A stretch of 64,000 bases of DNA, from IMG/VR virus record IMGVR_UViG_3300032245_001567, positions 2,140-66,139 of that record, one strand, 5' to 3'. Position numbers and translations under genes: made by a program. Below, piece by piece: positions 34,393 to 56,787 of the stretch. The notes under the pieces were generated by a model. That model saw only the letters and a list, made by a program, of their open reading frames with translations, was not told the origin of the DNA and ran no database searches. The DNA is from a virus. Its lineage: Duplodnaviria > Caudoviricetes. Every line of letters begins with the position of its first letter. Positions within the stretch are counted from its first letter, which is position 1.

Positions 34393-35235
34393 TTAGAAAG
34401 TGAATTTACGCAATTTTATTAATTCAAGGTATCCGCCCACGCCACAAATGCGTTTCACATAAGTTTTTGTAACGGGAGCAACTAATTCAGTCGGAAGCGT
34501 TAAATATTCGTCGGGAGTATATTTTGCCATTGAACTAACTCTCCATGGATTACCATTTTTATAAAAACCTCCGTTATATCCATTGATTACCCAATCAACA
34601 CGAATTCTATTGATTGAGCCTTCAGCAACTACGCTTAGGGATATAAGTTGAGATAAATACATCATACCAATATGCAAACCGAATAATTTATCGGTCATCA
34701 TTAACTGATTGTATTTGTTTTCGGGTTTTGCCGAATCATTTTTTTTCGGGAATTTTGGGTCATAAACAAGATAAATACCTCCTTCAACTGCACCTTTATA
34801 GGTCATCAAATCCTTTACTGATTTTTGTCTAAATTGAAGATTATCCCTATCCCAAAGGTCTGCCATTTTAGGGATTTTTACACCCTTCTTTAAAGTGAAA
34901 GCATTTGGGCATTTGTAGTAAATGTAGAAAAATTTGTTAAATGGGAATTCTTCGTCAAAGGCAAATTTGATTACCCCGTCCAAGGTTGCAGCATTTGTTT
35001 GCATTGCCCCATAAGATAAACCATCTTGACTTCTTCCCGTATTACCGCCATTTTCAACTACGGCTACGGAAAACGCCAACGCCAAATTAACATCATGAAT
35101 ATCCGCTACATCACGAATTTCTTTACCACTTTTATTAAAAGTAGATTGCATATCCGCTAATCCTTGGGCTTCAGTTCTATCAGAAGCATAAGAAACAAGC
35201 GGAGTTTTAATCTTTACATTGGTGATATTTGCCAT
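34393..35235 (-). CDS. lytic transglycosylase (SLT-like)
   Basis: AVVENGG catalytic Glu, GAMQ, GMMYL, GYNGG, TKTYVKRI. Confidence 0.78.
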   Translation of the reverse strand: MANITNVKIKTPLVSYASDRTEAQGLADMQSTFNKSGKEIRDVADIHDVNLALAFSVAVVENGGNTGRSQDGLSYGAMQTNAATLDGVIKFAFDEEFPFNKFFYIYYKCPNAFTLKKGVKIPKMADLWDRDNLQFRQKSVKDLMTYKGAVEGGIYLVYDPKFPKKNDSAKPENKYNQLMMTDKLFGLHIGMMYLSQLISLSVVAEGSINRIRVDWVINGYNGGFYKNGNPWRVSSMAKYTPDEYLTLPTELVAPVTKTYVKRICGVGGYLELIKLRKFTF

Positions 35236-36661: not shown

Positions 36662-38473
36662 TTATTTTTTGGCTAATTGCAATCGGTACACTTTTGCAGC
36701 AACTTTATCGCCTACTTCCCTTGCCTCGTCTGCATCATAGCGTTTCCCATATTCAACTTGATATTCGCGTTTTACGGCTTTACCTTCATAGTTTTTGGCA
36801 ACTTTTTGGCTAAGTTTATCAAATCCAATATGACCACCTTCACCATATTTATGAGTTTTCATACCAACTTCAAAATATTTATCTTCATCCCACAATTGGT
36901 TCATCAAATTCTTTGCTTGTGATTTAGATAAATTTTCTTTATAGACCTCTTCATCATCACTTACGCCTTTTCTAACCCAAACATAATAACTTGATTCAGT
37001 TTCTCCACCTTTTGCAAACATAGATGATTTTGAAAACTCGATATAATTTTCAGCAGCCTCCATTGCATCACCTTCAGCCATAGTTCTCTTTCCACTCATT
37101 TTAGAATCATCTAACATTGGATTTACTCTTACGCCTTTTTCGATGTTTACAACTTGGATTTCGCCATTCTTGTCTTCGATAATCAAAAACGAGCCATCAG
37201 TCTTTAGGATTTTATCGCCTTGGAAAATTCCATGCTCTAACCATCCACCTTGAGCCATATAGCCACCTTTAGCCATTTTGTCAAAATCATCTTCCCTTAA
37301 AACTGTTCTTAATGTGTCTCCATTTGGGTGGTAATTTTCAATTTCTACAAAATACATTAGGTTGCCTTGAAAATCTTTCTTTTTAGAAATTATTTTAGCC
37401 ATTTTGCCATTGTATTTAATCATACCACCTTTAGCCATATATCCACCTTGAGCGAGATATTCTTTACCAATAACTTTTTTGTGTTCTTTTGCTTCTTCCA
37501 AAGTAACTACTTTACCTATTTCACCTCTTGGTATTCCTAAATCAATCATTTCCTGAGCCTTCTCTTTTGTCGTAGGTCTTGTAATGATATACCAATATCC
37601 ATCTTTTTCAGAAACTGCTACATAATTTTTTTCGGAAACATTACCACCTTTAGCCATTTTGCTTGGAGCAACTTCGATTTCATAAGTGATATCTTCACCA
37701 TGTTTCTTAGTCATTTTTGTCAAATGGTAATCTTCAAACATCTCTCTTGCTTCGCCTTTGTTTCTTGCTCTTACGATTTGTTCGTCGACCATCTCCCCGT
37801 CTTTATAAATTTCTACTAAATAAGCATCGTCTGAGGAGTAAACATTACCACCTTTAGCCATTTTGCTTACTTCTTTTACGCCCCAAATAGCCATATCACC
37901 AATAGCAAAACCAACATACCCATCTTTCATTGATTTGTATGCATAGTATTTTACGCCTTGGGGATTTGCTACGTTGATAAAAGTAACTTTTTCTTTTTCA
38001 TTACTCTTACCCTTATTTACAAGATTTTTACTGCGAACTTCCAATTCAACTTCTTTGCTATTGGAAATTCCACTTGAATAAGTGATTTTGATTTTATCTC
38101 CTTTTTTAAGAGAATCTATATCAACTGAATCAAGTTCACCTCCTCTTGCAAATCTTTTGCCTTCACGAACACCTTCAAGAACTTCTTCGGCATTCATTGG
38201 GGTAAAGTACAAGTCACGCTCTAAAGGAAGTCTGAACTTACCAACTCTCAAGTTTTCCAACTCTTTCCTTGAAACGCTTCCAACTTCTACTTCATCCAAA
38301 CTTACAATAGCCCAAAGATAATCAGGGTCATTAGGGTCACTATTGATAATGAACCATAAACCCTTACCATAGGGATTGAAAATCTTGGCGATAACTTTTT
38401 GATTTTTTAAATCACTACCTTTTGCATATTGGGCGAACAACTTTTTGTCTATGCCACTTGTAAATAATTTCAT
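36662..38473 (-). CDS. modular polyprotein: DUF2958-like domain plus small modules joined by nine xAxGG linkers
   Basis: KIFNPYG..W...EVGSVSRKEL...LERDLYF; FARGG, MAKGG x4, LAQGG, MAQGG, FAKGG, YGEGG. Confidence 0.8.
   Translation of the reverse strand: MKLFTSGIDKKLFAQYAKGSDLKNQKVIAKIFNPYGKGLWFIINSDPNDPDYLWAIVSLDEVEVGSVSRKELENLRVGKFRLPLERDLYFTPMNAEEVLEGVREGKRFARGGELDSVDIDSLKKGDKIKITYSSGISNSKEVELEVRSKNLVNKGKSNEKEKVTFINVANPQGVKYYAYKSMKDGYVGFAIGDMAIWGVKEVSKMAKGGNVYSSDDAYLVEIYKDGEMVDEQIVRARNKGEAREMFEDYHLTKMTKKHGEDITYEIEVAPSKMAKGGNVSEKNYVAVSEKDGYWYIITRPTTKEKAQEMIDLGIPRGEIGKVVTLEEAKEHKKVIGKEYLAQGGYMAKGGMIKYNGKMAKIISKKKDFQGNLMYFVEIENYHPNGDTLRTVLREDDFDKMAKGGYMAQGGWLEHGIFQGDKILKTDGSFLIIEDKNGEIQVVNIEKGVRVNPMLDDSKMSGKRTMAEGDAMEAAENYIEFSKSSMFAKGGETESSYYVWVRKGVSDDEEVYKENLSKSQAKNLMNQLWDEDKYFEVGMKTHKYGEGGHIGFDKLSQKVAKNYEGKAVKREYQVEYGKRYDADEAREVGDKVAAKVYRLQLAKK
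37636..37868. repeat. 29-bp exact direct repeat encoding SKMAKGGNV
   Basis: aaacattaccacctttagccattttgctt at 37636-37664 and 37840-37868. Confidence 0.9.
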
Positions 38474-38474
38474 A

Positions 38475-39197
38475 TTAATCGTTTCTATGTTTTTTTGATT
38501 GAACTATTACTCCTTTGGAGAATTGACCTGCACCCGCCAATTTCTTCGCTTGTGCAATTTTACCGCCCAACTCAAGGTATGGGAATCCTTTGCCTTGTCT
38601 TACATCGCTCCTATTGGCTCTACTTTCATAATAGGGCTTATTGGTTTTTTTACTTATCCTGCGCCCTGGAGGTAATGCTTTTCTTGGAGCATCTCTTTCA
38701 ACATCAGTCCCTTTTTTGTATTGAGGCATCAACTTCAAGAAACTACTTAGTTTTTGATATTGCTTTTGAGCAGCACTCTGAACTTTTGCTCTTTGAGCAC
38801 GGAAGATTTCTCCCGCTCTCTTTAAAGCATCTCCCCATGGTTCACCTTCTTTACGAATTTCTTTTGCCAATTTGGCTATTTCACCCTTGTTAATTTTGGT
38901 GATTGAAGGTTTACCCTTAGCGGTTTTGGGTTGTTTAACGTGTTTCTGAAGCACCTGCTTCGCTTTCGCTTGAGGAGTTACGGGAGTAGGCTCTTTTTTT
39001 TGAAGAGATTTGAATGCTTCATCATAACCGCTTTGCTTTAATTTGCTTAACACGGCATCAAACTTAGCACCAATAACTTCAAGGGCTTCTTCGTCCGTAA
39101 AATTATCGGTGTCCTCTCTCATCGCGTCGATGATGGAAAGGGCTTTTTCTGGTAATTTCGACCTATCGAGGTCTTCGTATTTCTCTTTGTAAGTCAT
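38475..39197 (-). CDS. basic putative DNA-condensing/core protein
   Basis: K-rich; WGDALKRA; RKALPPGRRISK..YYESRANRSD; LELGG. Confidence 0.6.
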   Translation of the reverse strand: MTYKEKYEDLDRSKLPEKALSIIDAMREDTDNFTDEEALEVIGAKFDAVLSKLKQSGYDEAFKSLQKKEPTPVTPQAKAKQVLQKHVKQPKTAKGKPSITKINKGEIAKLAKEIRKEGEPWGDALKRAGEIFRAQRAKVQSAAQKQYQKLSSFLKLMPQYKKGTDVERDAPRKALPPGRRISKKTNKPYYESRANRSDVRQGKGFPYLELGGKIAQAKKLAGAGQFSKGVIVQSKKHRND

Positions 39198-39207
39198 AAT
39201 TTATGTT

Positions 39208-40209
39208 TTAAAAATCCAAATCCAATTCCTCGTATTTGGAGGCTAATTTTTCTTTCTTTTGTTTTTTCTCAGTTGGTAATTCAACTTTGGTTTTGATTTC
39301 GGTGATTTTAACAGAAGTCTCTTTTGCTTTTTTAGGCTCTTTTATACTTGGCGATGGTGCTAACCCTTTTTCCGCCCTATACTCATCATAAATAGCCTTT
39401 AAAGAAGATTTGAACAACTCAAACGCTTCGGGAGACTTATCTTTCAACTTGTGAATTTTATCCCATGGCAAATTGCTCAAATATTTCATGAACTCATCGT
39501 CTATTTCATCATCTAAAAGGAAATTCAAGTAAGAAAATATGTTTTGTACATCCTTCCTATCTAAAAGAGGATTTTGATTGATTAATCTTGGCTCTCTCTT
39601 TTGTTTAGTAATGATAACATTTGCAGGGGTTTCTTCTTCCACCGACCAATACGTCAAATCAGATAATTTATCCAAGAGTTTGAAAAATATACTCGAATAG
39701 ATTATTGAATTCATTTCATATTCGGGAACAATATCCTTAATGGTTTTACCATTAGATTCATTATGTTTTATAATAAAAACTAATCCCTCAATATTTAACC
39801 CTAATGCATGAAAAACTATCTTTTGTTCACCCAAATACTTCAAAAGGCTTTGAGTAAACATCACTATCTTGTAGGTTTTTTTATCGTTTTTGTATTGATA
39901 ATTATCGCCAATGCTTATACCTCCCGACTTTTCTATGTTGGCTGGATTCTCCAATTCTAAAAAAGTTGGGTCATCATCATTCATGACTTGCAAGAACAAT
40001 TTTTTCTCACTTATCATATTTTCAATCATAAACGTTTTATTCAAGAAGCCTTCGGGATTTTTAGAATTAAAAAATGGATAATATGAGCCGTTAATATTGC
40101 CTATTGTATTTGGACTTAGCCTTAAATAAAGCCTATCCCCATACAAATCAGCCTCCGTTAAAGGGATAAAAATCCCCATGCTACTTAGATATAAGTTTCC
40201 TACAATCAT
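39208..40209 (-). CDS. hypothetical protein
   Basis: Ends KYEELDLDF. Confidence 0.7.
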   Translation of the reverse strand: MIVGNLYLSSMGIFIPLTEADLYGDRLYLRLSPNTIGNINGSYYPFFNSKNPEGFLNKTFMIENMISEKKLFLQVMNDDDPTFLELENPANIEKSGGISIGDNYQYKNDKKTYKIVMFTQSLLKYLGEQKIVFHALGLNIEGLVFIIKHNESNGKTIKDIVPEYEMNSIIYSSIFFKLLDKLSDLTYWSVEEETPANVIITKQKREPRLINQNPLLDRKDVQNIFSYLNFLLDDEIDDEFMKYLSNLPWDKIHKLKDKSPEAFELFKSSLKAIYDEYRAEKGLAPSPSIKEPKKAKETSVKITEIKTKVELPTEKKQKKEKLASKYEELDLDF

Positions 40210-40500
40210 TTAGTTTAAAATTTTTAAATTCTGAAGATATTTTAATTGCTCTTCAATGTTTGCAATGTTCCATGAAAGAGGGGACATTGTACCCTTTTTA
40301 TCAATCACATGAACTTCTATTTTCCCATCGACAACATTTACCAAAGTACGAGAATATTCAACTTTCATGATAACGCATTCTTTTTCGTCATCCATATAAA
40401 AGTTGATTGATTTCAAATCAAACCCATGAGTTTTGTTAGCCATGCTAAAAGCCTCTAACAACTCATTCATTTTTTTCTTTTGTCTATTTGTTATCATCAT
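40210..40500 (-). CDS. hypothetical protein
   Basis: Coupled ORF. Confidence 0.65.
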   Translation of the reverse strand: MMITNRQKKKMNELLEAFSMANKTHGFDLKSINFYMDDEKECVIMKVEYSRTLVNVVDGKIEVHVIDKKGTMSPLSWNIANIEEQLKYLQNLKILN

Positions 40501-41963
40501 CCTAATACTCTATTAATCGCGTCTATTATTTTATCCCTACGCTCATCAATTTTTGGAATATCCGAAGCAGGAGTATTGTAAATTTCTGGGGAAGCATCAC
40601 TAACAATTACAAACGCGTTATTAATTGAATCAATCAATTTAGAACGCAATCTCCAATCGGAAGTACCCTTGGCTCTTTCTCTATCTACAATTCTACGAAT
40701 TGCTTTTTCGATATCTTTTGCAAGAAGCATCTCTCCCAAATCGCCAATGCGATAAAATTCATCCTCAATGGCTTTTTCATTCGATTTGAAATTATTTGAA
40801 GGATTACTCAAACCACCAATAATCATCAAAGATTTGTCGTTTACTTTAGTTTGAAATAAGCCTTTATTTTTTAAATCCCAAAGGTAATTTCTATATTGAT
40901 TGAACAAAAGATTCATTTCAGATTTGTCGTATATAGTCCGACCATACCCCGTCAATTCTTTACCATACATTTTTCTTATAACTCCTTCGGTATTTTGCCA
41001 AAGACCATAACGGAAAAATCTTGGGTCTGCACCTGCAACGGCAATTGCATCTCTATCAAGTGGAGCACCATATTCTTTCAAAACCCATGAAATTAAAACC
41101 TCATTTTTACTTTGTTCGTAAATACGAGCACCATAAATTCTAACTTTTACTCCTGCTTGTTCCATTTGCTCTGCAAACATCATAATAGGAGTAATTTTAG
41201 CCAACATACCTTGGCTATTTAAACTTGAAGAAGCATTTATAGGTACAAAAACATCTAAGTATTGAGGCGCACCGCCTTTTTTAGGTCTAATCAAATAGAT
41301 TTTCTTGGTCTTGGTAGCAAATTTTAATCTATATATTTTACCATCCATTCCTTTCCCACTCACGGGGGAAGTAGCGTACATATTATCGCTTACCAAAATC
41401 AACTTGGCATTGGGCACATTTTTCAAAATTTCAAACGTCCCCGTTTGTTGCCTTCTTACACGATATTGCTTTCCATCAATATAAGTATAGAAATTTGATT
41501 GTCCTTTACCTAACTCGATTTTCTCAACAAAGTTGCCATCTACTAACTCATCCAATTCCTCAACATACCACTCCACCATGCGATAAAGCGTAGGAGCAGC
41601 CAACGAAAAATCAAAAGTACCACTTGGGTCTTCAGTAGGTTTTAACCTATCTTTTTCTAAAACCCCACCTAAATCAATCTTTTGAATTAAATCCTCGGTT
41701 AATTCTTGATATTCTTGTAAGGCTTTTTGATTGACGTATCGGGTGATATTTTTTAAGTCTAATTGCTCTCTTGCGGATTTACCCTTTTCAATTTCATAAA
41801 AATCATATTCCGAGTTATTTAAAAAATCTACATTATAAGCCCTTGGTTCTACATAGATAGGGTCATCAACTTTTTCTTTGGTAATTGGGTTAATACGCAA
41901 TCCATCTTGTCCTTCTCGGACAAAGTCACTATAACTCTCAAAAATACCAAAATACTTTGTCAT
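40497..41963 (-). CDS. VWA/CobT-like partner of the AAA+ ATPase
   Basis: G.FDF, YLDVFVPINASSS degenerate MIDAS, EQAGVKVRIYG, LKEYGAPLD; directly follows the AAA gene. Confidence 0.55.
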   Translation of the reverse strand: MTKYFGIFESYSDFVREGQDGLRINPITKEKVDDPIYVEPRAYNVDFLNNSEYDFYEIEKGKSAREQLDLKNITRYVNQKALQEYQELTEDLIQKIDLGGVLEKDRLKPTEDPSGTFDFSLAAPTLYRMVEWYVEELDELVDGNFVEKIELGKGQSNFYTYIDGKQYRVRRQQTGTFEILKNVPNAKLILVSDNMYATSPVSGKGMDGKIYRLKFATKTKKIYLIRPKKGGAPQYLDVFVPINASSSLNSQGMLAKITPIMMFAEQMEQAGVKVRIYGARIYEQSKNEVLISWVLKEYGAPLDRDAIAVAGADPRFFRYGLWQNTEGVIRKMYGKELTGYGRTIYDKSEMNLLFNQYRNYLWDLKNKGLFQTKVNDKSLMIIGGLSNPSNNFKSNEKAIEDEFYRIGDLGEMLLAKDIEKAIRRIVDRERAKGTSDWRLRSKLIDSINNAFVIVSDASPEIYNTPASDIPKIDERRDKIIDAINRVLG

Positions 41964-41966
41964 AGA

Positions 41967-43358
41967 TTAGAATATTTTACCCCCGTAAGTCTTGTTGAAA
42001 TTCTTAACCATCTTTTCTGCTTCTGCTCTTTGAGCCTCGGTAGAAAGATTATCTAATGGTCTTGAATTTACTTCGGGAATTACTGAATCAATGAAAGTTT
42101 GAATTGGAACTTCTGAGTACAAATTGGTTTGCTGAATTTCGGTGAACAACTTAACAAATGACAATACACCATCTTGCAAGGTTTTTGGTCTTGGATTTGG
42201 GTTGCCATTCATTTCATTGATACGATATGCCAAATAAGTATCTTTAAAGTTGTTCATGATACGAGCAGAAATAAACGCTTCGTTTCCATATCCCAACCTT
42301 TCAATTGCTTCACGCATCTGAATCAAGAATACGAATAAGAAAGCCATATTGATTTCTTCGTAAAGAACGCCATTTACATACTTATTTTTGATTGTAAGTA
42401 CTTTATTGTATTCCATTTCATAATCGTAAAATACACGATAAGTACTACCCGCAAATCTATCTTGCAAAGAAGCATCTTGTGCAAAGTTTGCAGTATAGTT
42501 AGGGTCGGGTCTTAACAACAAAGTGTTACCCGTACCAATTGCGAAGAAGTTTTTCAACGCAATACGCTCGTTTCTACCATTGTAGATGTATTTGTCCATT
42601 ACCTTGCCATTAACCACTCTTGGGGGGTCTTTTAAGGTAGACAAAGCATCGTTCATGATACCCGCAGTATTAGGGTCTAATTTTGGCAACTCGTCAATCA
42701 AAAGCAAAGCACCTTCATAGGGCTTGTTTGTTTCAGGATTAATATCCAACTCTAAGTTACCCCATGCACGAACCAATTTACCTTCTTGATAACCATCGAT
42801 AGTTTGACCACCGATAATTTCCAAAGGAGATGTGAATTGGTTACAATTGATTGTGATAACTTGATAGCCTATGGCATTGGCAACTTCTTTCGCGATGAAA
42901 GTTTTACCCGTACCAGCAGAACCATAAAGATACACATTGTTGTTGGCAGCGAAATCACTCATGATAACCCAAAACAATGCTCTTTGTTGAGATGCTTGGC
43001 TTACATTCATGGTTTGCGAACCACCCGCAGTAACATTTACTACGGAAATAGTTACGCCCTTTAACTTATCGATATAGTCTTTTACTTCGGGGGACAATTG
43101 ACTCAAGGAAATTTGCTTAGAAGAAAAAACCTCTTCTGCAATTCTTTTCACCTCTTCGTCATCCACTCCACCCGCAGTGCTAATCATATTTGACAATGCT
43201 TGAAGTTGAGCCAAGGCATTGCTTGAAGCCATACTTGATGAAACTGAAACGGATTTAAGGGTCTCCAACCTTCTTTGAAGAATTTCCCTCGTGCTATCAT
43301 CCAATTGACCTGCTAATGCTTTCTCAATAGATTGTATTTTATCTTGTTTGTTATCCAT
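41967..43358 (-). CDS. MoxR/CobS-like AAA+ ATPase
   Basis: GSAGTGKT, LLLIDE, GTGNT, QDASLQDRF, ISAR. Confidence 0.88.
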   Translation of the reverse strand: MDNKQDKIQSIEKALAGQLDDSTREILQRRLETLKSVSVSSSMASSNALAQLQALSNMISTAGGVDDEEVKRIAEEVFSSKQISLSQLSPEVKDYIDKLKGVTISVVNVTAGGSQTMNVSQASQQRALFWVIMSDFAANNNVYLYGSAGTGKTFIAKEVANAIGYQVITINCNQFTSPLEIIGGQTIDGYQEGKLVRAWGNLELDINPETNKPYEGALLLIDELPKLDPNTAGIMNDALSTLKDPPRVVNGKVMDKYIYNGRNERIALKNFFAIGTGNTLLLRPDPNYTANFAQDASLQDRFAGSTYRVFYDYEMEYNKVLTIKNKYVNGVLYEEINMAFLFVFLIQMREAIERLGYGNEAFISARIMNNFKDTYLAYRINEMNGNPNPRPKTLQDGVLSFVKLFTEIQQTNLYSEVPIQTFIDSVIPEVNSRPLDNLSTEAQRAEAEKMVKNFNKTYGGKIF

Positions 43359-44343
43359 ATACTTGTGTTAGTGCGTTTTGTATGTTTGTTAGTAATTCCA
43401 TATTACTCATTTCGGGTAAACCCGCTTTTTTGCCAATGGCTTTAAGTTGATTAGCCCCAAAAATATTTATCGTTTTAAATGCTTTTTGTTTTGTATCAAT
43501 CACTTCTTTCATTTCACCACGAGGAATCCCCATTGCATCTTCAAGTGCATCTATAAGCCCTTGTGGATTACCCGATTTATGGGATTTGCTTTTTGTGGTA
43601 GGTAAATGTTGATTAGGGTCTTCGCCATCACCTTCACCATCGCCTTCTCCTTCTCCTTTTTCTTTTCCTTCGCCATCACCATCGCCTTCACCATCGCCTT
43701 CGCCTTCGCCATCACCTTCGCCATCACCATCGCCATCACCTTGTTCTTCACCTTCTCCTTCTTCTTCTCCATCATCTCCACCTTCGCCATCGCCTTCGCC
43801 TTCACCATCGCCTTCGCCTTCGCCATCGCCTTCGCCTTCGCCATCGCCTTCGCCTTCGCCATCGCCTTGTTCTTCTCCTTCTCCTTCTTCTTCTCCATCA
43901 TCTCCACCTTGACCATTTCCTTCATCTTGGCTTGGTTCGGTTTTTTCTTCGGCTTTATCAAAGTTTTCAAGGTCTTCTTCGTCAAGTTCTCCTTTTTCCA
44001 ATGCATCAATAATATCTTCAAGAGAAACTTTCTTCTCTTTTTCTTGTTTTTGCGGTGGAGGAGTTTCTTCTTTGGATTGATTATCAATTAATTCATCAAA
44101 GTATTTTTTGGCATCAAGGACATCCTGATAAGAAGAAATTTGAAACTCTTTAAAATCCAAACTATCTCCATCAGTGTTAACCTTGTCTACAATAATTATA
44201 TCATTTAGAGCCTCGAAACGAACTAAAACGCCCGTTTTTGGAAAAGTTTTCTTCCAAAGTCGCATCTTATTTCCTTCGTTTTTCTTGGTAAATGACATAG
44301 TTGTGCCATCTCCAAGTTCAAGGTATTGAATATCTTCACTCAT
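43351..44343 (-). CDS. protein with long acidic G/D/E linker
   Basis: (GDGEGE)n tract, as in CobT-like linkers. Confidence 0.75.
   Translation of the reverse strand: MSEDIQYLELGDGTTMSFTKKNEGNKMRLWKKTFPKTGVLVRFEALNDIIIVDKVNTDGDSLDFKEFQISSYQDVLDAKKYFDELIDNQSKEETPPPQKQEKEKKVSLEDIIDALEKGELDEEDLENFDKAEEKTEPSQDEGNGQGGDDGEEEGEGEEQGDGEGEGDGEGEGDGEGEGDGEGEGDGEGGDDGEEEGEGEEQGDGDGDGEGDGEGEGDGEGDGDGEGKEKGEGEGDGEGDGEDPNQHLPTTKSKSHKSGNPQGLIDALEDAMGIPRGEMKEVIDTKQKAFKTINIFGANQLKAIGKKAGLPEMSNMELLTNIQNALTQVYG
43620..43920. repeat. coding low-complexity tandem repeat (GDGEGE units)
   Basis: tcgccttcgccatc arrays; GGDDGEEEGEGEEQGDG unit occurs twice. Confidence 0.9.
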
Positions 44344-44372
44344 GATTTAGGTGTAAAAGTACAAAGTTTATT

Positions 44373-46805
44373 TTAGAACACAAAATCAAGGTCGTTATAC
44401 TTGGCTTTAAGATTCTCAATCTTTCCGCCCTTCTCGAACCTACTATCTTGAACTTTTGAATTAAATTCAATAGCGTTTGCCCACTTGATTTGATGAGGGT
44501 AAAAAACAACAAAACTTCCTGTTGTATTGATTTCTCCATTGACCAAATCGTCGGGATTGTCCTCAAACATCAAAATTCCATCGTATTGAGTATTCCCTTT
44601 CACAAATTCTAAAAATGGCACACCTCTACGAACAAATTGCCAAATTTTCATTTTCATGTTCATTATTTGGTCAAGTTTTTCTTGAGATAAACCTCTTAAA
44701 GAGGGGACAATATCCAAAGAATTTAATCCATATTCATCGCTCAAAACATTCAAAATTTCGTTCATTGGAACTTCTTGAAGCCCATATCTTCTAAGGTCGA
44801 TAGGGTTTTTCATGTTAACGAAAACTTCGTACATATAACCTTCACTTCCTCTTGCTTGAGCAAACCATTCTGAATAAGAGCGATTATCACCAAAATAGGC
44901 TACGGGGAATCTATCGAATTTCCAAGCGTAGAAGTCGGCATCACTACCATGAAATAAAACCAAAGGCTCTTCCGTAATTGGGTTGATAATTTTGCTCACG
45001 CCCGAATAATCGTTGGTGTAAAATGCAGAAACCCAATCGCCAAACCAATCGATAAATTGAGGTGTTCTTACTCGTTGAAATTGAGATTTCGTTAATTGAC
45101 TTTTAACTCCGTTAATGGCAGTTTCATTGCTCAATCCACTATCATCTACCTTTTTTGCAAAATAGGTGTTCTCTAACTTATCAATCAGTTCTATAGGGTC
45201 AAGAACTTCAAGTTCATAACGCATTTTCAAATCAAAAATTCGATTCAATTCCCTATCGATTTGTATCAATTTAGGATTCTTATTGTCATCAATCAAAGAA
45301 CGCATAACCTGAAGTTGTACCTCTTGCTCTTTTAGGGCTTGGATGATGGTTTTTATACGCTCAACTCTTCCTTCATCAACTTGTTTTGGTTCTGCAACTT
45401 GCTTAGGTTGAATATCCTCAAATGCTAAATCACTTACATCGGCATTTAACTTAGCCGAAAACATAAAAGAATATTTTGGTAAATTGATTTTTTCAGAATA
45501 ATACTCATCTAAGGTTCTTTCGTAAGGATTAAAATCCCCGTGATTTTTACTTATGTCTAACCTATCTTCAATTTCTGAGCCATCTTGCCAAACAAATTTA
45601 ACCTTAACCTTGTCATAAGTCCCATCACCTCTAAGTTCTTCTTTTGGATAACTAAATTTTAACCAATCTTCAAACTCTTTAAACGTAGTGAAAGTTTTGT
45701 TAACCCATACATCTTCAATGTATTTGATAGGTACTTTATTGCTTTCAGGCAAAGTTACTATCGGGGATTGTGGTGTTTGTTCATCATTGAGAGATAAATT
45801 TCGAATATTAGATTGTAATGAAATTTTATAAAAAGGATTAGAGCCTTGTATATAATTATTTATAAAGATGCGTAAAAAAGTTTCAATATTTACGTTACTT
45901 TCATTCCAATTGAACCCATCCCCAACTTTCATTTTTAATGAAATAGTTGAATCGTCTTCCCAAACAAATTTAATAGTTATTTCCTCTGATTTCGGAGGCG
46001 ATAAACTTGCCAATTTTTGACTATATTCTTGTATGAATTCTAATGCACTATCAAAACTATTCCTGATTGTTGAATCTGAATCTTCAAAGAAAAATTGAAT
46101 ATAATCTATTGGAACTATTTTTTGAATTTTAGAAGCAACATTATCATCAATTCCAAGTTCTTCTATCTCGCTTTTTAAAGCGACTTCGTCAAAAAGGAGA
46201 TTGCCACGTTGTAATTGATTAAAGTAATTTTTTAAGAAATTAGGAATTAGAGATGGGTAAAATTCACTATCTTTATTCAAAAGTAAATTGAATTTAACTT
46301 TTGAACCATCTTCCCATTTAAAATCAAAGAAAAATTTAATAGGTTCTTTTAAAGAAGCATTTTTTATTTTAAGGATTTGTTTTTTTAAATACTCATTTGC
46401 ATCATTAAAAGAAAATAAGAATTTATTAGAACCATCGTCAGTGTTTGTTATTTTAATTATTGAAATACCAATTAATTTTTTAGCGTTATTAGAATCATTG
46501 TCTACAACCCCACCATCAGCCATTTTAGGCGTTTTATTAACAATTTCACCACCGCTTTCAAATGCGACTCCTCCATGGTCTGAGTTTAAAGTTGAAAGGA
46601 TTTCTTTTGGGGTCATCAATTTCCCTTCAAACTCGTATTTTTCCTTGGATTGTACGGCAGGTTTTGTAATTACAACCTCGCCACCTTCTACCTCAATTGG
46701 TTCATTAGTATCCACGTTGATACCCTTTATTCCACCTTCTGAATGTGGTTTACCTACAAGATATCCACCTTTCTTAGCGTCTTTTGTTTTGATTTGTTTT
46801 GCCAT
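44373..46805 (-). CDS. polyvalent protein: HxxGG/EGGE domain, three LPD25-like repeats, ADP-ribosyltransferase-like (ART-PolyVal) domain
   Basis: GKPHSEGG..EVEGGE; KWEDGS/VWEDDS/VWQDGS with YDKVK; FIDWFGDW, PLVLFHGS, YF, VNMKNP, YDG, VVFYPHQIK. Confidence 0.75.
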   Translation of the reverse strand: MAKQIKTKDAKKGGYLVGKPHSEGGIKGINVDTNEPIEVEGGEVVITKPAVQSKEKYEFEGKLMTPKEILSTLNSDHGGVAFESGGEIVNKTPKMADGGVVDNDSNNAKKLIGISIIKITNTDDGSNKFLFSFNDANEYLKKQILKIKNASLKEPIKFFFDFKWEDGSKVKFNLLLNKDSEFYPSLIPNFLKNYFNQLQRGNLLFDEVALKSEIEELGIDDNVASKIQKIVPIDYIQFFFEDSDSTIRNSFDSALEFIQEYSQKLASLSPPKSEEITIKFVWEDDSTISLKMKVGDGFNWNESNVNIETFLRIFINNYIQGSNPFYKISLQSNIRNLSLNDEQTPQSPIVTLPESNKVPIKYIEDVWVNKTFTTFKEFEDWLKFSYPKEELRGDGTYDKVKVKFVWQDGSEIEDRLDISKNHGDFNPYERTLDEYYSEKINLPKYSFMFSAKLNADVSDLAFEDIQPKQVAEPKQVDEGRVERIKTIIQALKEQEVQLQVMRSLIDDNKNPKLIQIDRELNRIFDLKMRYELEVLDPIELIDKLENTYFAKKVDDSGLSNETAINGVKSQLTKSQFQRVRTPQFIDWFGDWVSAFYTNDYSGVSKIINPITEEPLVLFHGSDADFYAWKFDRFPVAYFGDNRSYSEWFAQARGSEGYMYEVFVNMKNPIDLRRYGLQEVPMNEILNVLSDEYGLNSLDIVPSLRGLSQEKLDQIMNMKMKIWQFVRRGVPFLEFVKGNTQYDGILMFEDNPDDLVNGEINTTGSFVVFYPHQIKWANAIEFNSKVQDSRFEKGGKIENLKAKYNDLDFVF

Positions 46806-46816
46806 TTTTTTAAAGT

Positions 46817-47794
46817 TTATAAACTACCACCTTTTTCGTATTTTCTTATATCATTGCTTCCCGTTAATTCATCTCTGAATAATAATTTCTCATCAGTTAA
46901 ATCAATCAACAAATAGGAAACTACTTTTTTAACTTGAGAATCAAAGGTATGTATTTCAACATATCCGCCAAGAATTTCGGCTATTTCTTCAGCCTCAGTT
47001 TCATTGTGGGTTTCGTGCAAATTTTCGCTATCATCATTTACTACGCGATAAACAACTTCATCTTCGGTAATAGTTGATGCATAAATAAGTACAATTGAAT
47101 CTGCTTTATCGTCTTCTCCTACGTATAAGATTTTACGAGAGACGTTCAATTTACGTCCTCTTTGTAAGTAAGAATAATCTTCATTAAGTTCAATCCCAAT
47201 TTTGTAAAATTGAGTTGAAATTCTTTCATAGAAGTAATTTAACAAACTATTTAAATTGAAGCCCTTAATTTCTTCCTTATTTGATTCAAAATCGCCAAGG
47301 TCATACAATGGTTTAAAATTTAAGATGTAATCCAACTTACTTTCCAAATCATCATCAGTTTGCCCCCCTTTAGCCATGATTTTCATTAAATTCCCCTTGG
47401 CTAATTTTAAATCTTTTAACCTCTTGTAGTAATTTGGATTTTCATATAAATGTGATGAAGCGATGTGTTGAGCCATCAAGTAATCATCCGTATGTTCAAG
47501 TTCATGGTCTGCACCCTCGTTTAAAAGTTTTTCAACTTCTTTTTTTGTGAGATTGTGTTTTTCTTGAATCTCTTTTGGGGTGAAATAAATTACACCATTG
47601 TAGGTTTTATTGCTATTAGGCGTATTATTTTCGGGGTTTCTCATTTCTATGCAATTTTCAGAAAGTGTGATATTTTTTGTTGTTAAATGATTATTTGCAA
47701 CAACATTAAAAGCATCTTGTAAATCCATAGAATCCCCAATTACAAAGGACTTTTCAACTCCTTCAGCCGTTTCAAATGTTGCAATAAACTTCAT
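46817..47794 (-). CDS. modular protein with DUF5661-like domain
   Basis: GADHELEHTDD...IASSHLYENPNYYKRL; MAKGG and YEKGG. Confidence 0.72.
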   Translation of the reverse strand: MKFIATFETAEGVEKSFVIGDSMDLQDAFNVVANNHLTTKNITLSENCIEMRNPENNTPNSNKTYNGVIYFTPKEIQEKHNLTKKEVEKLLNEGADHELEHTDDYLMAQHIASSHLYENPNYYKRLKDLKLAKGNLMKIMAKGGQTDDDLESKLDYILNFKPLYDLGDFESNKEEIKGFNLNSLLNYFYERISTQFYKIGIELNEDYSYLQRGRKLNVSRKILYVGEDDKADSIVLIYASTITEDEVVYRVVNDDSENLHETHNETEAEEIAEILGGYVEIHTFDSQVKKVVSYLLIDLTDEKLLFRDELTGSNDIRKYEKGGSL

Positions 47795-49289: not shown

Positions 49290-49616
49290 TTACTTCAATA
49301 ATTCCAATTTTGGTTTCGCAGGTTCAATTTGAACATTAGAAACGGCAAATTTGATGTTGTTTGCTTCGCAATTTTGGCAATAAAACAAATTGCCATCTTG
49401 TACACCGATAATTGCTCTTGAACAATGCGTAGAGCACAATTCGTATTCTTTCGCATATTGCCCCTCAATTTGAGTAGGCACTAATTGAGAAGGCACTTTG
49501 TGGCACTTAACTGCTTGTCCATCTTTTAACAAGATTTTTACCTCTTTAAATTGCTTCAACGGGTGGTTAGTGATTTCATACTTGTGGATGAATTCAATTG
49601 GTTTATTTTCAGACAT
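49290..49616 (-). CDS. Cys-rich hypothetical protein
   Basis: CH...CSTHC...CQNC. Confidence 0.65.
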   Translation of the reverse strand: MSENKPIEFIHKYEITNHPLKQFKEVKILLKDGQAVKCHKVPSQLVPTQIEGQYAKEYELCSTHCSRAIIGVQDGNLFYCQNCEANNIKFAVSNVQIEPAKPKLELLK

Positions 49617-49622
49617 AAGATT

Positions 49623-49979
49623 TTATTTTAAAAGGTTAATTACTTCTACGAAATGTTTGCATTTCTTCTTTTCTAATTCATACAATTGCCAAAAAGGAAC
49701 AAGTAATGGGTGTCTCTTTGTTTCTATGTTTTTAGTTTCACCATAAATCCACCCATTATGACTTTTCTCATTAAGCCAATAATTGTGAGAATTTTCGGGA
49801 GTTGGATTTGATTCTAAACAATAAAATACTTGTTTAAAAATGTAATGCTTTTCAACTTTATCTAATTCATCCCATGGTGACTGCGCTAAATTATCGTTTG
49901 TTTCTCCCCATATCCTCGTTGATTCGTAGGCGATTTTTGCAATAAAACCGACCAAAAGACCATTTTCAACTTGACTCAT
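49623..49979 (-). CDS. RyR-domain protein
   Basis: PENSHNYWL..K...GWIYG..KN...KRHPLLVPF.QL. Confidence 0.8.
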   Translation of the reverse strand: MSQVENGLLVGFIAKIAYESTRIWGETNDNLAQSPWDELDKVEKHYIFKQVFYCLESNPTPENSHNYWLNEKSHNGWIYGETKNIETKRHPLLVPFWQLYELEKKKCKHFVEVINLLK

Positions 49980-50227
49980 TTCAATCCTTTAGCGATTCCT
50001 TTTACCGCATACATTTGTGCCGTCTCTAACTCAGTCATGGCGATTGAAAAACATCTTTTTGCTTCTCCGTCTTCTGTTGCCACAAGTTCGTTATTACAAT
50101 AGTCAATAGCGTCAGCCATCATACGTTTGAATGTTCCAATCTTATCATCGCTTGATGGATTGAAATTAATGTGACATCTCTTTTCTCCGAGTGTCATCGG
50201 TCTTTGTGGTGGTGTTTGGTCTTCCAT
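49976..50227 (-). CDS. Acb2/Tad1-like helical hairpin protein (candidate nucleotide sponge)
   Basis: FNPS...KRCFSIAMTELETAQMYAVKGIA. Confidence 0.65.
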   Translation of the reverse strand: MEDQTPPQRPMTLGEKRCHINFNPSSDDKIGTFKRMMADAIDYCNNELVATEDGEAKRCFSIAMTELETAQMYAVKGIAKGLK

Positions 50228-50238
50228 ATTTTTTAAAA

Positions 50239-50877
50239 TTAGTCTATGTTTTCTTCTCTTTTAAAAGGGGTGGACATAACATTATATGTCCAATCGGGGT
50301 TAGTTGCTTTTTTGTATAATGAAGTCATCGCCATCATTTCTTTAATCATCTCGAAATCATGCCCATACGAACCCGTTTGTGGGGGTAATTCTTTAAAAAA
50401 ATCGGTTTTTATGCATAATTCTGCGTGACCAATTAATCCTTGAGAAAGTTGTGAATCCCTTATTAAACCTAAAGCACTATTGAATACATTGTAGTAAACA
50501 AAATCAAAATCAGTATTCTCGATTTCGCTTAAATAATGTTGAAAGTGATAGTTCTTGATACAATCATCGTTATCAATGAAGCATAGGTATTTCCCATTGG
50601 CTAAAATCTTCATCAGATTTCTAACGTAATAGCCGAACCCACCGCGATTTGAATAAAGATTCCAAGCATGGAAATAATTGCCTTTTTGGCGTTCCTGCTC
50701 GATTAAATTCATCATCTTGCCACTATCCAATAACTCTTGAAAATATGCGCAATGGTCTCCAATAAGAAATACTTCAAAATCATTGATTGTTTGATTGCAC
50801 AATTGCTCAATCAATCGTTGCGTTCTTTGCGGTCTGCCATAAATGGGGACAACCGCAGTAATCCTTGGGGTTATCAT
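50239..50877 (-). CDS. glycosyltransferase, GT2
   Basis: VVPIYGR, IGD, FIDNDD, HD. Confidence 0.85.
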   Translation of the reverse strand: MITPRITAVVPIYGRPQRTQRLIEQLCNQTINDFEVFLIGDHCAYFQELLDSGKMMNLIEQERQKGNYFHAWNLYSNRGGFGYYVRNLMKILANGKYLCFIDNDDCIKNYHFQHYLSEIENTDFDFVYYNVFNSALGLIRDSQLSQGLIGHAELCIKTDFFKELPPQTGSYGHDFEMIKEMMAMTSLYKKATNPDWTYNVMSTPFKREENID

Positions 50878-51500
50878 CTTATGAAAATTAAATTTTCAGC
50901 ATTTTTTTGATGAAATTTCATTCCAAAAGAAAGAACGTATTTGAACATTTTTGCTTGTAGCAACAAATCGCTATTGTACTCAACACATAAGCATTGGCAA
51001 TTTACTTCGTTCAAGTCAATCATGTTCAGAATAATCCAATCCATACCCTCGGCATCGATTGAGATAAATTCATAATTTTGATTCTTTCTTGTGGCTCTAA
51101 AATCGCTCCAAGTAATGAAGTCTGCACTAATCTCTTTGAACTTAACATCATCACCCCATTTTTTGGTTTCTTCTTCATCCAAAGAGGAATACAAACACAC
51201 ATCTTCGCCATTTTTGTAACCACCACTCTCGTAAAATCTCTTTTCACCATTGAATAACGCTAATCCATAATTCAAGCATTCAACTTTTTCGTTGTCTTTG
51301 TGCAATTCCTGAAGCAATGCAAACGCTTTAGGGCTTGGTTCAAACAATACGCCATTCCATCCATTTTCAATCAAATGCAAGGAATTGGAGAAAGTCTTGC
51401 CATCATTAGCCCCAATGTCCAATAATGTGAAATTTGTGGTGTCCTTGCCTTGAAAATATTGGGCAACTATTTGGTCTTCGTTGTTCTGCGAATAAAACAT
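50874..51500 (-). CDS. FkbM-family methyltransferase
   Basis: YSQNNED, LDIGANDG, FEP, SIDAEG. Confidence 0.9.
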   Translation of the reverse strand: MFYSQNNEDQIVAQYFQGKDTTNFTLLDIGANDGKTFSNSLHLIENGWNGVLFEPSPKAFALLQELHKDNEKVECLNYGLALFNGEKRFYESGGYKNGEDVCLYSSLDEEETKKWGDDVKFKEISADFITWSDFRATRKNQNYEFISIDAEGMDWIILNMIDLNEVNCQCLCVEYNSDLLLQAKMFKYVLSFGMKFHQKNAENLIFIR

Positions 51501-51502
51501 AA

Positions 51503-52084
51503 TTAACTTCTAAAAACGTCAAACTTTGAGAAAATTTCCTCGCTTACAAATTCCGTGTCTTCTCTCTTACGAAGAACACAACTCACATTGCCACCATCGG
51601 TAATATTACCCATCGCATATTCGGTAACAAGTTCAAGGATTTCATATCCCATAGCATCTGCTAATTGGCGATAAAAGTTTTCATTGAGGTAATTGCACCC
51701 GTGACCAATCCAATGACCCGTCATAGGGTTCTCGTGAATCATAATACCACCAACCTTACAAGCATCGTGGATGTTTTTTCTTGCTTGATAGTAATTACCA
51801 TCAACGTGCTCGGTTGTACCGAAATCAGTTACAACATCAAAAGCATTGTGATAAGCCTCGTCAATAGGCTCTCTCAAGTCTACAATTTTTGAATTTTGGC
51901 AACCAAGGATATCCCAAGTTTCCATATTTACGCCAAATCTCTTTGGCAATTCATTCAATGAAATTGACATTTCATCATAACCCTGAACGTAGATGTTTTG
52001 ACATCCCAATTCAAGCATTCTCTTTGAAGGATGAAGGCATTCAAAACGCTTCATTCTATCTAAACTTAAATGTGTTATTCCCAT
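51503..52084 (-). CDS. SAM-dependent methyltransferase (start revised)
   Basis: MLELGCQ, FDVVTDFGTTEHV, KVGG. Confidence 0.8.
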   Translation of the reverse strand: MGITHLSLDRMKRFECLHPSKRMLELGCQNIYVQGYDEMSISLNELPKRFGVNMETWDILGCQNSKIVDLREPIDEAYHNAFDVVTDFGTTEHVDGNYYQARKNIHDACKVGGIMIHENPMTGHWIGHGCNYLNENFYRQLADAMGYEILELVTEYAMGNITDGGNVSCVLRKREDTEFVSEEIFSKFDVFRS

Positions 52085-52089
52085 AATAT

Positions 52090-52785
52090 TTATGCTAATC
52101 CTTGTGCGAAAAAACATACCGAATCATTGTTCGGTACTTTATTATCATCGGTAACGTATTGCAAGTAATCTTGACCACTCTGCAATTTCATACCTAATTG
52201 GTGGCGAATAATGCTACCACAACTCATATCGTGTCTATGACCCATACAACGCTCATCTTGGCTCTCGGTCTTATCATTATTTGACCATTCACCTTTGAAC
52301 ATCCCATCCATCATAGATTGCTTCCATTTATTGAAAAATTCATTGGCAATTTCAGTCGTGAAATCTAAGCCAAGGAATCCCGCATTGCCATACATCATGA
52401 TATTCATGGCTTCATCTCGTGAAACACCAAAATAATCCAATGCTCTATCGTTTGTCCATGTACCAACCATGTGACCCGCTTCTTGGCAGATATACCCATC
52501 GGCATCCATTACCTCAAATACTTTCATCACATTTTTGATAGCCCAAACGCTACAATCTACCCATAAGATTTGCTCAAAACCATGTCTTTTGATTTCCTCG
52601 AATGCACACACCTTGAACGCATAAGGGTTTTCTTTGTGTGAAGGAGCGTGTACTTCATGCTCAAAACCATAAAGATAAACGCTTCCAACAAAGTTATTGT
52701 TAATTTCTAAACTTGAACGTAATCTTTCTCTTCCCCTCATGTAACTTTCAGTACCCAAGGAGATTATCGCTCTCTTCTTGCTCAT
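52090..52785 (-). CDS. GT-A-fold glycosyltransferase-like protein
   Basis: PYAFK, ILWVDCS, HRHDMS. Confidence 0.7.
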   Translation of the reverse strand: MSKKRAIISLGTESYMRGRERLRSSLEINNNFVGSVYLYGFEHEVHAPSHKENPYAFKVCAFEEIKRHGFEQILWVDCSVWAIKNVMKVFEVMDADGYICQEAGHMVGTWTNDRALDYFGVSRDEAMNIMMYGNAGFLGLDFTTEIANEFFNKWKQSMMDGMFKGEWSNNDKTESQDERCMGHRHDMSCGSIIRHQLGMKLQSGQDYLQYVTDDNKVPNNDSVCFFAQGLA

Positions 52786-53342
52786 TTGTCGTTGATGAAT
52801 TTATAGTGATAAATCGGCTTTTCTATTTTAGCCTCTTTTTTCAGGTGTTTCTTAATTCTTTCTGAGTATTCTTTGTCCTCTGCATAGGTGATGTTCGGAA
52901 ATCTACAAACTTTCGCTATAGAAGCCAAAACGGGCGAAATATGGTTAGGAGTTCTGAAATACTTTTCGGTTGTTTCATACCACTCTTTGTTATCAATAGA
53001 AATATTCCATGGCTTCTCCCTAAGCCCGTCAAAAGTGATAATTCCATTGATACCTATACAATCTACGTCTGAGTTGTTTTTAATCGCATCATTGATGAGG
53101 AAAACGTATTCTGAATCAATTTCATCATCATCATCAATGAATACTACAAATTTTCCCGTAGATTCATCTAATAGCAAATTTCTCTTGTATCCCGTAGTTA
53201 TATCCGTTCTCCAATTCCAAAGTACTTCAACCTCTTCTTCAAGATTATTTGTTTTGATTTGAGAAAACAAATTTTCCAATAATACATCAAACATCGCCTT
53301 TCGTTTAGGCAACGTGCAAATCAATATGGATAGGTTTTTCAT
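52782..53342 (-). CDS. glycosyltransferase, GT2
   Basis: LSILICT, GYKRN, FIDDDD, ED. Confidence 0.88.
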   Translation of the reverse strand: MKNLSILICTLPKRKAMFDVLLENLFSQIKTNNLEEEVEVLWNWRTDITTGYKRNLLLDESTGKFVVFIDDDDEIDSEYVFLINDAIKNNSDVDCIGINGIITFDGLREKPWNISIDNKEWYETTEKYFRTPNHISPVLASIAKVCRFPNITYAEDKEYSERIKKHLKKEAKIEKPIYHYKFINDK

Positions 53343-54058: not shown

Positions 54059-54062
54059 TGTT

Positions 54063-54752: not shown

Positions 54753-54963
54753 AAAATAGCATATTAAGTTTGTTTAACTTGGCAACGGCTAATGCGCAAT
54801 CATCTAAGTTAAATGTATGTGCTTCAAAGATACTTTTCGTAAGTTTATAAACAAGCGTATGCTCATCAAAATCACTCAAATATCCTATGAAAAACGCCCC
54901 TTTGTCATGCGATTGAAAAGGGTCTACTTTGTTTTTCTTGATGACGTACTTCTTATCTTCCAT
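54721..54963 (-). CDS. hypothetical protein
   Basis: Coupled ORF. Confidence 0.6.
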   Translation of the reverse strand: MEDKKYVIKKNKVDPFQSHDKGAFFIGYLSDFDEHTLVYKLTKSIFEAHTFNLDDCALAVAKLNKLNMLFYEICTIDEIA

Positions 54964-55189: not shown

Positions 55190-55192
55190 GGT

Positions 55193-56192: not shown

Positions 56193-56202
56193 ACTTTATT
56201 CA

Positions 56203-56210: not shown

Positions 56211-56235
56211 AACATTTCACACCATTAATCCAATT

Positions 56236-56785: not shown

Positions 56786-56787
56786 TC

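Follow-up and report, generated by a model that had tools for sequence, protein, structure and literature searches.

A conserved Gly-Gly junction peptide joins exchangeable modules in polyvalent proteins of an uncultured phage lineage

Why should one short peptide ending in Gly-Gly recur between otherwise unrelated segments of several proteins of the same phage? This question is raised by a 64,000-nucleotide stretch of viral DNA, positions 2,140 to 66,139 of IMG/VR record IMGVR_UViG_3300032245_001567. This whole stretch, called the window below, comprises nearly the whole 66,139-bp linear virus record, the completeness of which was estimated at 88%. The window encodes the phage-type proteins RecT, RusA, tail-spike-like proteins, and HNH, and it comes from an uncultured phage, the host of which is probably a freshwater Bacteroidota. 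An earlier, sequence-only reading had proposed that positions 36,662 to 47,794 form a block of injected polyproteins punctuated by [MFYL]-[AEG]-x-G-G linkers. Four proteins, all encoded on the minus strand, are concerned. Their sequences identify P0001, P0003, P0004, and probably P0002 as polyvalent proteins, each built of several modules and encoded by a phage lineage that is uncultured. A conserved junction peptide joins their small, mutually unrelated modules, and it is here that close relatives exchange entire modules. The four genes are as follows:

36662-38473, minus strand: P0001, 603 amino acids (aa); DUF2958 head, six unrelated small modules, and a conserved three-helix C-terminal module; nine motifs.
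38475-39197, minus strand: P0002, 240 aa, lysine-rich; a single motif LELGG (residue 208); C-terminal tail ending ..KKHRND.
44373-46805, minus strand: P0003, 810 aa; conserved N-terminal domain of ~85 aa, variable middle, ART-PolyVal, FEKGG, and a 16-aa tail.
46817-47794, minus strand: P0004, 325 aa; DUF5661 and two motifs.

Translation of P0001 recovered exactly the nine copies that had been listed for this gene, and all of its Gly-Gly dipeptides (9/9) lie within [MFYL][AEG]xGG. The copies in P0001, P0003, and P0004 are located as follows:

38138-38152, minus strand: junction 1, FARGG, residues 108-112; an alignment of 60 sequences shows no variation at G111 and G112.
37847-37861, minus strand: junction 2, MAKGG, residues 205-209; the 97% identity to the relative P0005 stops here.
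37643-37657, minus strand: junction 3, MAKGG, residues 273-277; within a 29-nt perfect DNA repeat common to junction 2.
37424-37456, minus strand: junctions 4 and 5, tandem LAQGG-Y-MAKGG, residues 340-350; period 6.
37244-37276, minus strand: junctions 6 and 7, tandem MAKGG-Y-MAQGG, residues 400-410; period 6.
37004-37018, minus strand: junction 8, FAKGG, residues 486-490.
36833-36847, minus strand: junction 9, YGEGG, residues 543-547; precedes the conserved C-terminal module.
46548-46562, 46509-46523, and 44424-44438, minus strand: P0003 motifs FESGG (residue 82), MADGG (95), and FEKGG (790), respectively.
47363-47377 and 46826-46840, minus strand: P0004 motifs MAKGG (140) and YEKGG (319), respectively; YEKGG is followed by two residues and the stop codon.

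The copies named for the neighbours of P0001 (FESGG, MADGG, FEKGG, MAKGG, YEKGG, and LELGG) are thus present, but AKKGG, at residue 10 of P0003, falls outside the [MFYL] class that the sequence-only reading had itself defined. For an enrichment test, the sequence of each protein was shuffled 5000 times. P0001 contains 9 copies as compared to a mean of 0.27 and P0003 contains 3 as compared to 0.086, and 0/5000 shuffles reached the observed number in either case. The values were 2 against 0.039 for P0004 (P = 0.0008) and 1 against 0.036 for P0002 (P = 0.036). The proposed enrichment over shuffled controls was therefore borne out for the four named genes. The remaining 113 open reading frames (ORFs) of the window contain 6 copies where 3.14 are expected (P = 0.094). 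Hence, YGDGG in 29484-29867, which the sequence-only reading had also listed, and the other outlying copies are probably due to chance. A chance or low-complexity origin of the motif as a whole, which these outlying copies would fit, is already refuted for the four named genes by the shuffles of P0001 and P0003 and is opposed by conservation of the motif across families and loci; its probability is practically negligible.

The P0001 modules comprise 107, 92, 63, 62, 49, 75, 52, and 56 aa, and no pair of them matches better than E = 0.17, in agreement with the earlier description of unrelated modules of about 50-100 aa. None of the seven modules after DUF2958 reaches a Pfam cut-off, even when matches are listed to E = 1. 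AlphaFold2, run on the 60-sequence alignment, gave a model with a mean predicted local distance difference test (pLDDT) score of 62.9. DUF2958 was modelled at pLDDT >90 (residues 1-100) and the middle of the protein as small beta or alpha-beta modules at pLDDT 50-80. Segments of pLDDT <50 were predicted at residues 111-117, 193-215, 268-300, 331-351, 402-418, 447-495, and 540-547. The Gly-Gly pairs of all nine motifs (9/9) fall into these segments, that is, between and not inside the small folded modules, which is the outcome of the AlphaFold domain-boundary check that the earlier prediction called for. Seven motifs lie wholly in low-confidence segments and two (108-112 and 400-404) partly; no helix or strand covers a motif, save residues 400-401 at the end of a helix. 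A Foldseek search with the P0001 model found no PDB structure at E≤0.001, and phmmer searches of PDB sequences with P0001 and P0004 gave no match below E = 0.16. The recognised domains and the C-terminal module are located as follows:

38195-38449, minus strand: DUF2958 (PF11171) in P0001, residues 9-93; Pfam E=1.2e-11, 45.3 bits versus a cut-off of 21.
36665-36832, minus strand: C-terminal module of P0001, residues 548-603; three helices at pLDDT ~90, the constant tail of the DUF2958 family.
44475-44969, minus strand: ART-PolyVal in P0003, residues 613-777; 42.2 bits versus a cut-off of 31.2.
47411-47578, minus strand: DUF5661 in P0004, residues 73-128; 37.9 bits versus a cut-off of 27.

DUF2958 is the constant head of its family and is present in 37/40 long homologues. 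The C-terminal module has 78 matches among the collected sequences and no Pfam match at E≤1. The prediction of conflict-type domains held for DUF2958 and ART-PolyVal (and DUF5661), which pass their Pfam cut-offs, but not for the LPD families, none of which passes in the window; the best trace in the Pfam scan is LPD25 with 16.9 bits against a cut-off of 27. The 40 long homologues scanned also carry Zeta_toxin, RadC, RelA_SpoT, and LPD11 (the latter in 2/40), so that a conflict-type polyvalent identity is supported by both the window proteins and their homologues. Precomputed Pfam labels of relatives include PF07275, which we take to be ArdA.

Polyvalent proteins of phages and conjugative elements have been described before, and processing by zincin-like metallopeptidase domains is proposed in that study (Iyer, Burroughs, Anand, de Souza, Aravind 2017, PMC5512222). 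P0001 (DUF2958 plus seven modules) and P0003 likewise combine several unrelated domains, are virus-encoded, and, in P0003, include the signature domain ART-PolyVal. The proteins resemble each other in having many unrelated domains on one phage-encoded chain, in ART-PolyVal, and in LPD11 and further domains of the homologues. They differ in that no zincin-like peptidase was found by Pfam in the window ORFs or the 40 long homologues, most modules (49-92 aa) have no Pfam match, and a single junction peptide joins all modules.

The motif was then followed across relatives. A word-index search identified 637 relatives among 8000 scored candidates, and an exhaustive HMMER search with P0001 identified at least 1352 cluster representatives (E≤0.001). 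In 123 proteins, namely the four of the window and 119 homologues, 861 of 1220 Gly-Gly dipeptides lie within [MFYLWIV][AEGSDQ]xGG; in addition, 116 of 121 further cluster representatives contain [MFY][AE]xGG, with 665 copies in 82,059 aa. The position frequencies (1017 occurrences) are M 0.39, Y 0.32, and F 0.20 at the first position, Ala 0.62 at the second, and K 0.38 and D 0.19 at the third, followed by G-G-x and by V, T, M, I, or L (0.90 together); the extended consensus is [M/Y/F]-A-x-G-G-x-[V/I/T/L]. The median spacing between motifs is 67 aa. A spacing of precisely 6, which makes a tandem hexapeptide as in the two pairs of P0001, accounts for 107 of 786 spacings.

Furthermore, 23 loci of related viral contigs were compared, with ORFs defined by a longest-ORF script and not by a gene caller. 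The duplicate loci L009, L013, and L014 were dropped before codons, conserved neighbours, ends of high-scoring segment pairs (HSPs), and motif flavours were counted. A giant ORF of 2000-3272 aa with 18-30 motif copies often precedes the DUF2958 gene in related contigs. Judging from position and C-terminal tail, we infer that P0002 occupies the place of this motif-rich giant. A Pfam scan of four motif-rich ORFs (1014-3272 aa) gave nothing above threshold. The joint is longer in the giant-ORF lineage, where it forms a double unit with a 10-residue period. Motif flavours also follow lineage: the window, L004, and L021 have M and K, and L010-L019 have Y/F and D. Among 185,579 species genomes only two matches were found, both contigs in Bacteroidota metagenome-assembled genomes, one of them labelled Sediminibacterium; the same gene pair is present in one of the two. 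A tblastn search of 50,697 phage records did not turn up a cultured relative; its matches, in 6 records, cover single modules only.

Two wider distributions of the motif were considered and rejected. It is not a property of the modules themselves: the module at residues 113-204 occurs motif-free in a 462-aa protein of Methylophilales phage Melnitz-3, and DUF2958 occurs as a stand-alone, motif-free protein of 123 aa in Sphingobium phage Lacusarx. Nor is it general to the giant proteins of Bacteroidota phages, given that only 0, 0, and 1 copies were counted in the giant ORFs from crAss-like phages and Bacteroides phage BF1-TP2 that share the ART region of P0003. Sequence comparison thus points to a motif specific to this phage lineage.

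P0001 modules recur in other proteins at relative positions 0.14-0.86 and are nearly always flanked by the motif. Module 210-272, for example, is preceded by it in 27/27 and followed by it in 26/27 other occurrences, and module 351-399 has it on both sides in 16/16. The beads-on-a-string build that had been proposed is therefore supported both by the model, with its folded modules separated by low-confidence motif segments, and by the recurrence of motif-flanked modules elsewhere. Comparison of module content across relatives, as the sequence-only reading had suggested, was most informative for P0005. This protein shows 97% identity to P0001 over residues 1-211 and has five modules in common with it at 77-99% identity, whereas P0001 modules 210-272, 351-399, and 491-542 are without counterpart (6-15% identity). 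Other segments replace these three modules in P0005, and every boundary lies at the corresponding motif; the three modules were swapped exactly at motifs. When internal HSP ends were collected from 35 motif-rich ORFs (1364 ends), 48% were no more than 5 aa away from the centre of a motif as compared to 11% of random points, although HSP ends are biased toward motifs since the motif itself scores.

At the DNA level, direct repeats of 15-29 nt were found at P0001 junctions and longer ones in L015. Synonymous codon use within the motif, counted in the window and in L002-L021, is strongly biased as well: Ala is encoded by GCT in 243/300 motif copies versus 404/855 after M/F/Y elsewhere, Asp by GAC in 97/132 versus 244/616 in other DG, and the first Gly by GGY in 334/369 versus 663/918 in other GG, while codon use of the second Gly is close to background. 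Conserved DUF2958 residues, used as a control for Asp and Gly but not for Ala, gave GAC in 33/53 and GGY in 54/86. Because this control shows a similar lean, the bias partly reflects a general preference of conserved sites; context and general conservation account for it only in part. Selection on the protein is indicated by the interchange of M, Y, and F, the codons of which (ATG, TAT, and TTT) differ. We read the junction as a putative peptide signal whose conserved codons would also supply microhomology for exchange.

Two translational roles of the motif were rejected, the first of them as its general function. ATG-GCT-AAA resembles a good start context and some short proteins begin with MAKGG; however, internal translation starts at the motif ATG do not fit the Tyr or Phe found there in more than half of the copies, or the GCT bias that is also seen in Y/F lineages (31/33 in L016). 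Shine-Dalgarno-like pausing is not favoured either, as the first Gly avoids GGA and GGAGG is thereby avoided.

The copies close to protein ends are of particular interest. In the P0003/ART family, the last motif lies ≤25 aa from the C-terminus in 75/80 proteins and ≤3 aa from it in 8. A single-module relative of 85 aa has MAKGG at its start and, near its end, MAMGG followed by a conserved tail of 12 aa; several further short relatives terminate in Y-[T/S]-I-G-G-L. Apparently, the motif is more than a linker, since terminal copies leave a hinge or spacer without a role. Three C-terminal endings recur after the last motif, namely a 12-residue His-containing ..GGEVFYKESHK.., Y-[T/S]-I-G-G-L, and an acidic ..DFVF; they were found in P0015 and P0326-P0338, in loci L002, L003, L005, L007, and L021, and in the window at 38475-38561. 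At 2049 last sites, the second residue after Gly-Gly (P2', if a cut follows Gly-Gly) is V/I/T/L in 87%. The first residue (P1') is Pro in 0.1% versus 2.8% background and L/F/W/Y in 7.7% versus 17.9%, in a pooled set that is partly redundant, with the window ORFs counted twice.

Taken as a protein-level feature, the junction peptide would seem to be selected as a recognition signal. The reading that we favour, tentatively and at somewhat less than even confidence, is that of a cassette joint doubling as a peptide signal, the likeliest use of which is in processing. The string would be made as one chain and cut at or beside Gly-Gly by an unrecognised phage or host protease; numerous small effector-like modules, all with uniform ends, would be set free and the short terminal tails removed, and the conserved codons, seen as 15-29 nt repeats, would provide an in-frame joint for cassette exchange. 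A processing site would explain most features at once because of the invariant small Gly-Gly residues, the fixed hydrophobics that flank them, and the absence of a following proline, together with one site per junction, doubled sites, and terminal sites suited to tail trimming. The more far-reaching version is doubtful: a phage counter-defence arsenal made as true polyproteins, with dozens of inhibitor-like modules on chains of up to 3272 aa, a Gly-Gly-directed unrecognised protease, and the junction as an in-frame splice point for reshuffling between phages. The chains might be packaged and injected, or else be expressed within the cell only; the former is favoured by the resemblance of the ART region of P0003 to parts of ORFs annotated as virion polymerase subunits or as DarB-like and by the position of the polyvalent genes upstream of those for tail-spike-like proteins and a packaging-type ATPase.

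Several observations weigh against processing. Pfam scans found no peptidase family among the 98 ORFs of the window with ≥80 aa at E≤1e-3 (the scan gave 9, 6, and 8 families in three batches plus those of the block, none of them a peptidase), at E≤1 in 10 conserved neighbours, or in the 40 long homologues and the 4 giant ORFs; a protease of novel fold could escape such scans. The HExxH of DUF5661 in P0004 is not conserved: its interpretation as a small zincin was rejected, as the first His of H-E-L-E-H is not conserved among 7 related modules, in which E-x-E-H-T .. D-H-L is conserved instead. According to PMC5512222, N4 vRNAP, ArdC, and TraC1 are polyvalent proteins that act uncleaved. The low pLDDT of P0001 may partly reflect a thin mid-protein alignment and not disorder, the motif counts pool related sequences and not independent events, and the clustering of HSP ends carries the scoring bias mentioned. 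Moreover, cassette borders would sit between domains under any model, and little weight can be given to the scarcity of destabilising residues at P1'. Against packaging and injection, apparent replication-type genes lie within the block, namely an AAA/MoxR ATPase and a weak gp32-like lead.

If the shared codons merely permit in-frame swaps, the motif could be a recombination joint plus passive linker and the proteins would function as uncut strings. This explanation, unlikely but the most serious of the alternatives, agrees with the modules swapped exactly at motifs between 97%-identical relatives, the HSP ends clustering there, the direct repeats at P0001 junctions and in L015, the GCT, GAC, and GGY bias, the lineage-specific flavours, the RecT and PD-(D/E)XK nuclease encoded in the window, and the failure of the scans to find a protease. 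It does not account for amino-acid conservation exceeding DNA conservation, seen in the interchange of M, Y, and F and in V/I/T/L at P2' across codon families; the second Gly codons are near background, the Asp bias is partly generic (DUF2958 GAC 33/53), and motifs 2-3 residues from the stop cannot act as linkers, any more than those with which single-module proteins begin at their first codon.

The terminal copies lend some support to the packaging tag that the sequence-only reading had named as its alternative, in the form of an uncut short linear motif, one per module, that binds a phage or host partner such as a capsid-interior or translocation component. Such a docking or packaging tag is quite unlikely, even though single-module proteins retain the motif at either end and ART-family proteins retain it at the C-terminus, bulky hydrophobics stand within an otherwise unstructured (predicted) segment, short tails are conserved after the last motif, and the ART region of P0003 resembles parts of ORFs annotated as crAss-like virion RNA polymerase (RNAP) subunits and as DarB-like. 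No partner was identified, a tag at every junction would be superfluous, and neither a capsid nor a portal gene could be recognised among the genes of the window. Packaging of ART giants does not need the motif, because the crAss-like and Bacteroides phage ORFs have 0, 0, and 1 copies. Even less probable is a structural hinge or insulator, in which a small x-G-G-x turn prevents co-misfolding or allows bending and is neither bound nor cut. One copy per junction, Gly-Gly after Asp, Asn, or Lys as suits a tight turn, and the lack of a recognised protease would fit it, but AlphaFold2 predicts no defined structure at the motif, terminal copies cannot be hinges, and linkers between unrelated domains are rarely so conserved across hundreds of clusters.

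Known Gly-Gly processing systems offer a partial parallel to the favoured processing site. In adenovirus and African swine fever virus, structural or core precursors are cut beside Gly-Gly by the virus-encoded cysteine proteases adenain and pS273R, with a hydrophobic residue at P4 (M/L/I-x-G-G). Common to both is a conserved Gly-Gly after a hydrophobic residue at junctions. Unlike those sites, the phage peptide has Ala at P4 in 62% and the bulky residue at P5, if the cut follows Gly-Gly, which again speaks against processing of this kind; in addition, no cysteine protease family was found in the Pfam scans. In T4 and phiKZ, internal proteins, the Alt ADP-ribosyltransferase with its capsid-targeting peptide, and inner-body proteins are matured by a head protease at sites ending in Glu. 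Shared features are a short site conserved in many of the cargo proteins, which include an ADP-ribosyltransferase, and terminal trimming (here predicted), but the sites end in Gly-Gly here, no prohead protease was found, and T4 and phiKZ cargo are not shuffled module strings. In polymorphic toxins, VENN in CdiA and DPxGL-type peptides in Rhs mark the border of constant and variable parts, serve as a recombination joint, and in Rhs are a cleavage site. The likeness lies in a short conserved border peptide serving as a cassette-exchange joint; however, those proteins are secreted bacterial proteins with one junction before a single C-terminal toxin, whereas up to 30 junctions occur per phage chain. 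A double-glycine leader of the C39 type was rejected as the motifs are internal and multiple and Pfam detected neither a Peptidase_C39 nor an ABC family in the window. RTX-like or other known glycine repeats were rejected because the register misfits their consensus and no Pfam family covers the junction-rich giants.

A full-text literature search, judged from titles and the beginnings of abstracts and covering main texts without supplements, gave no description of the junction peptide. The text of PMC5512222 contains 0 occurrences of 'linker' and 0 of 'glycine'. The term DUF2958 was found in two papers, neither of which by title deals with its function. The protein class is thus already known as polyvalent, while for the junction peptide we found no description. 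Much of the anti-defence repertoire of phages is thought to lie in polyvalent proteins, the domain borders and maturation of which are largely guesswork. A junction peptide at nearly every border would allow hundreds of giant proteins to be split into units by sequence only, and splitting the Pfam-less giants at the motif would yield a catalogue of candidate small inhibitors. If the motif is a cleavage site, it would stand for a polyprotein strategy in a double-stranded DNA phage, with the protease yet to be identified; if it is left uncut, it nonetheless represents a natural portable joint for the module exchange that is evident between near-identical phages, with a bearing on arsenal diversification and protein engineering.

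Conservation of the N-terminal domain of P0003 (residues 1-86, 46548-46805) greatly exceeds that of the remainder of the family, with 18 invariant columns in 36 sequences. It contains four further Gly-Gly dipeptides and has no Pfam match, and AlphaFold2 gave a poor model of residues 1-130 (mean pLDDT 53.3). At its other end (44373-44423), P0003, like most of its family, terminates in ..NDLDFVF after the last motif, similar to the ending ..ELDLDF of a neighbouring 333-aa protein. Such acidic-hydrophobic tips recall the C-terminal docking tips of single-stranded DNA-binding proteins (SSBs), and by this analogy P0003 might be recruited to, or compete for, partners of an SSB.

Between P0002 and P0003, the block is interrupted by five genes that lack the motif and are regarded as context outside the motif system:

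39208-44343, minus strand: five motif-free genes encoding, in order, a 333-aa protein, a 96-aa protein, a 488-aa DUF7192 protein, a 463-aa AAA_5/MoxR-type ATPase, and a 330-aa protein with an acidic repeat.

The 333-aa protein (39208-40209) gave a sub-threshold gp32-like Atlas lead (score 0.79) in addition to its acidic-hydrophobic end. For the 488-aa protein, the only Atlas match is the viral family DUF7192. The middle of the 330-aa protein (43351-44343) consists of a long, acidic G-E-G-D-type repeat of Gly and Glu/Asp, and for this protein Pfam gives a sub-threshold TrAA12-like match only.

The polyvalent genes are located upstream of genes including those for tail-spike-like proteins and a P-loop packaging-type ATPase. 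Pfam and PHROG scans of the window recognised no capsid, portal, or standard terminase (26159-28017 and 12030-36204 generally). The sole packaging-type match is a 269-aa P-loop protein (DUF87/HerA, E=1.8e-5; weak PHROG terminase match, 3.8e-5), and a HerA/FtsK-type packaging ATPase may serve as a lead to the virion type of this 66-kb phage. The record extends 2.1 kb beyond the window and contains only small ORFs there, outside the Pfam scan.

Small ORFs crowd 12030-36204, several of them membrane-spanning in appearance by eye. A paralogous pair of tail-spike or virion-structural-like genes is located at 15558-16598 and 30221-31876, 14 kb apart (phrog_6002 and phrog_4636, E down to 3e-48). The 280-aa protein encoded at 34393-35235 is conserved in 11 related loci and has no Pfam or PHROG match; by eye it shows motifs (E .. 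GAMQ .. YNGG) that we presume to be lytic-transglycosylase-like. Together with the flanking small, membrane-spanning-looking ORFs it may form a lysis or entry cassette. Additionally, 27 ORFs of 49290-63854 were scanned together against Pfam. An Acb2/Tad1 hairpin domain was found with E=4.5e-10, a family with known sponges of defence signalling nucleotides, as well as three GT2 glycosyltransferases, an FkbM methyltransferase, and WDGH and RyR domains.

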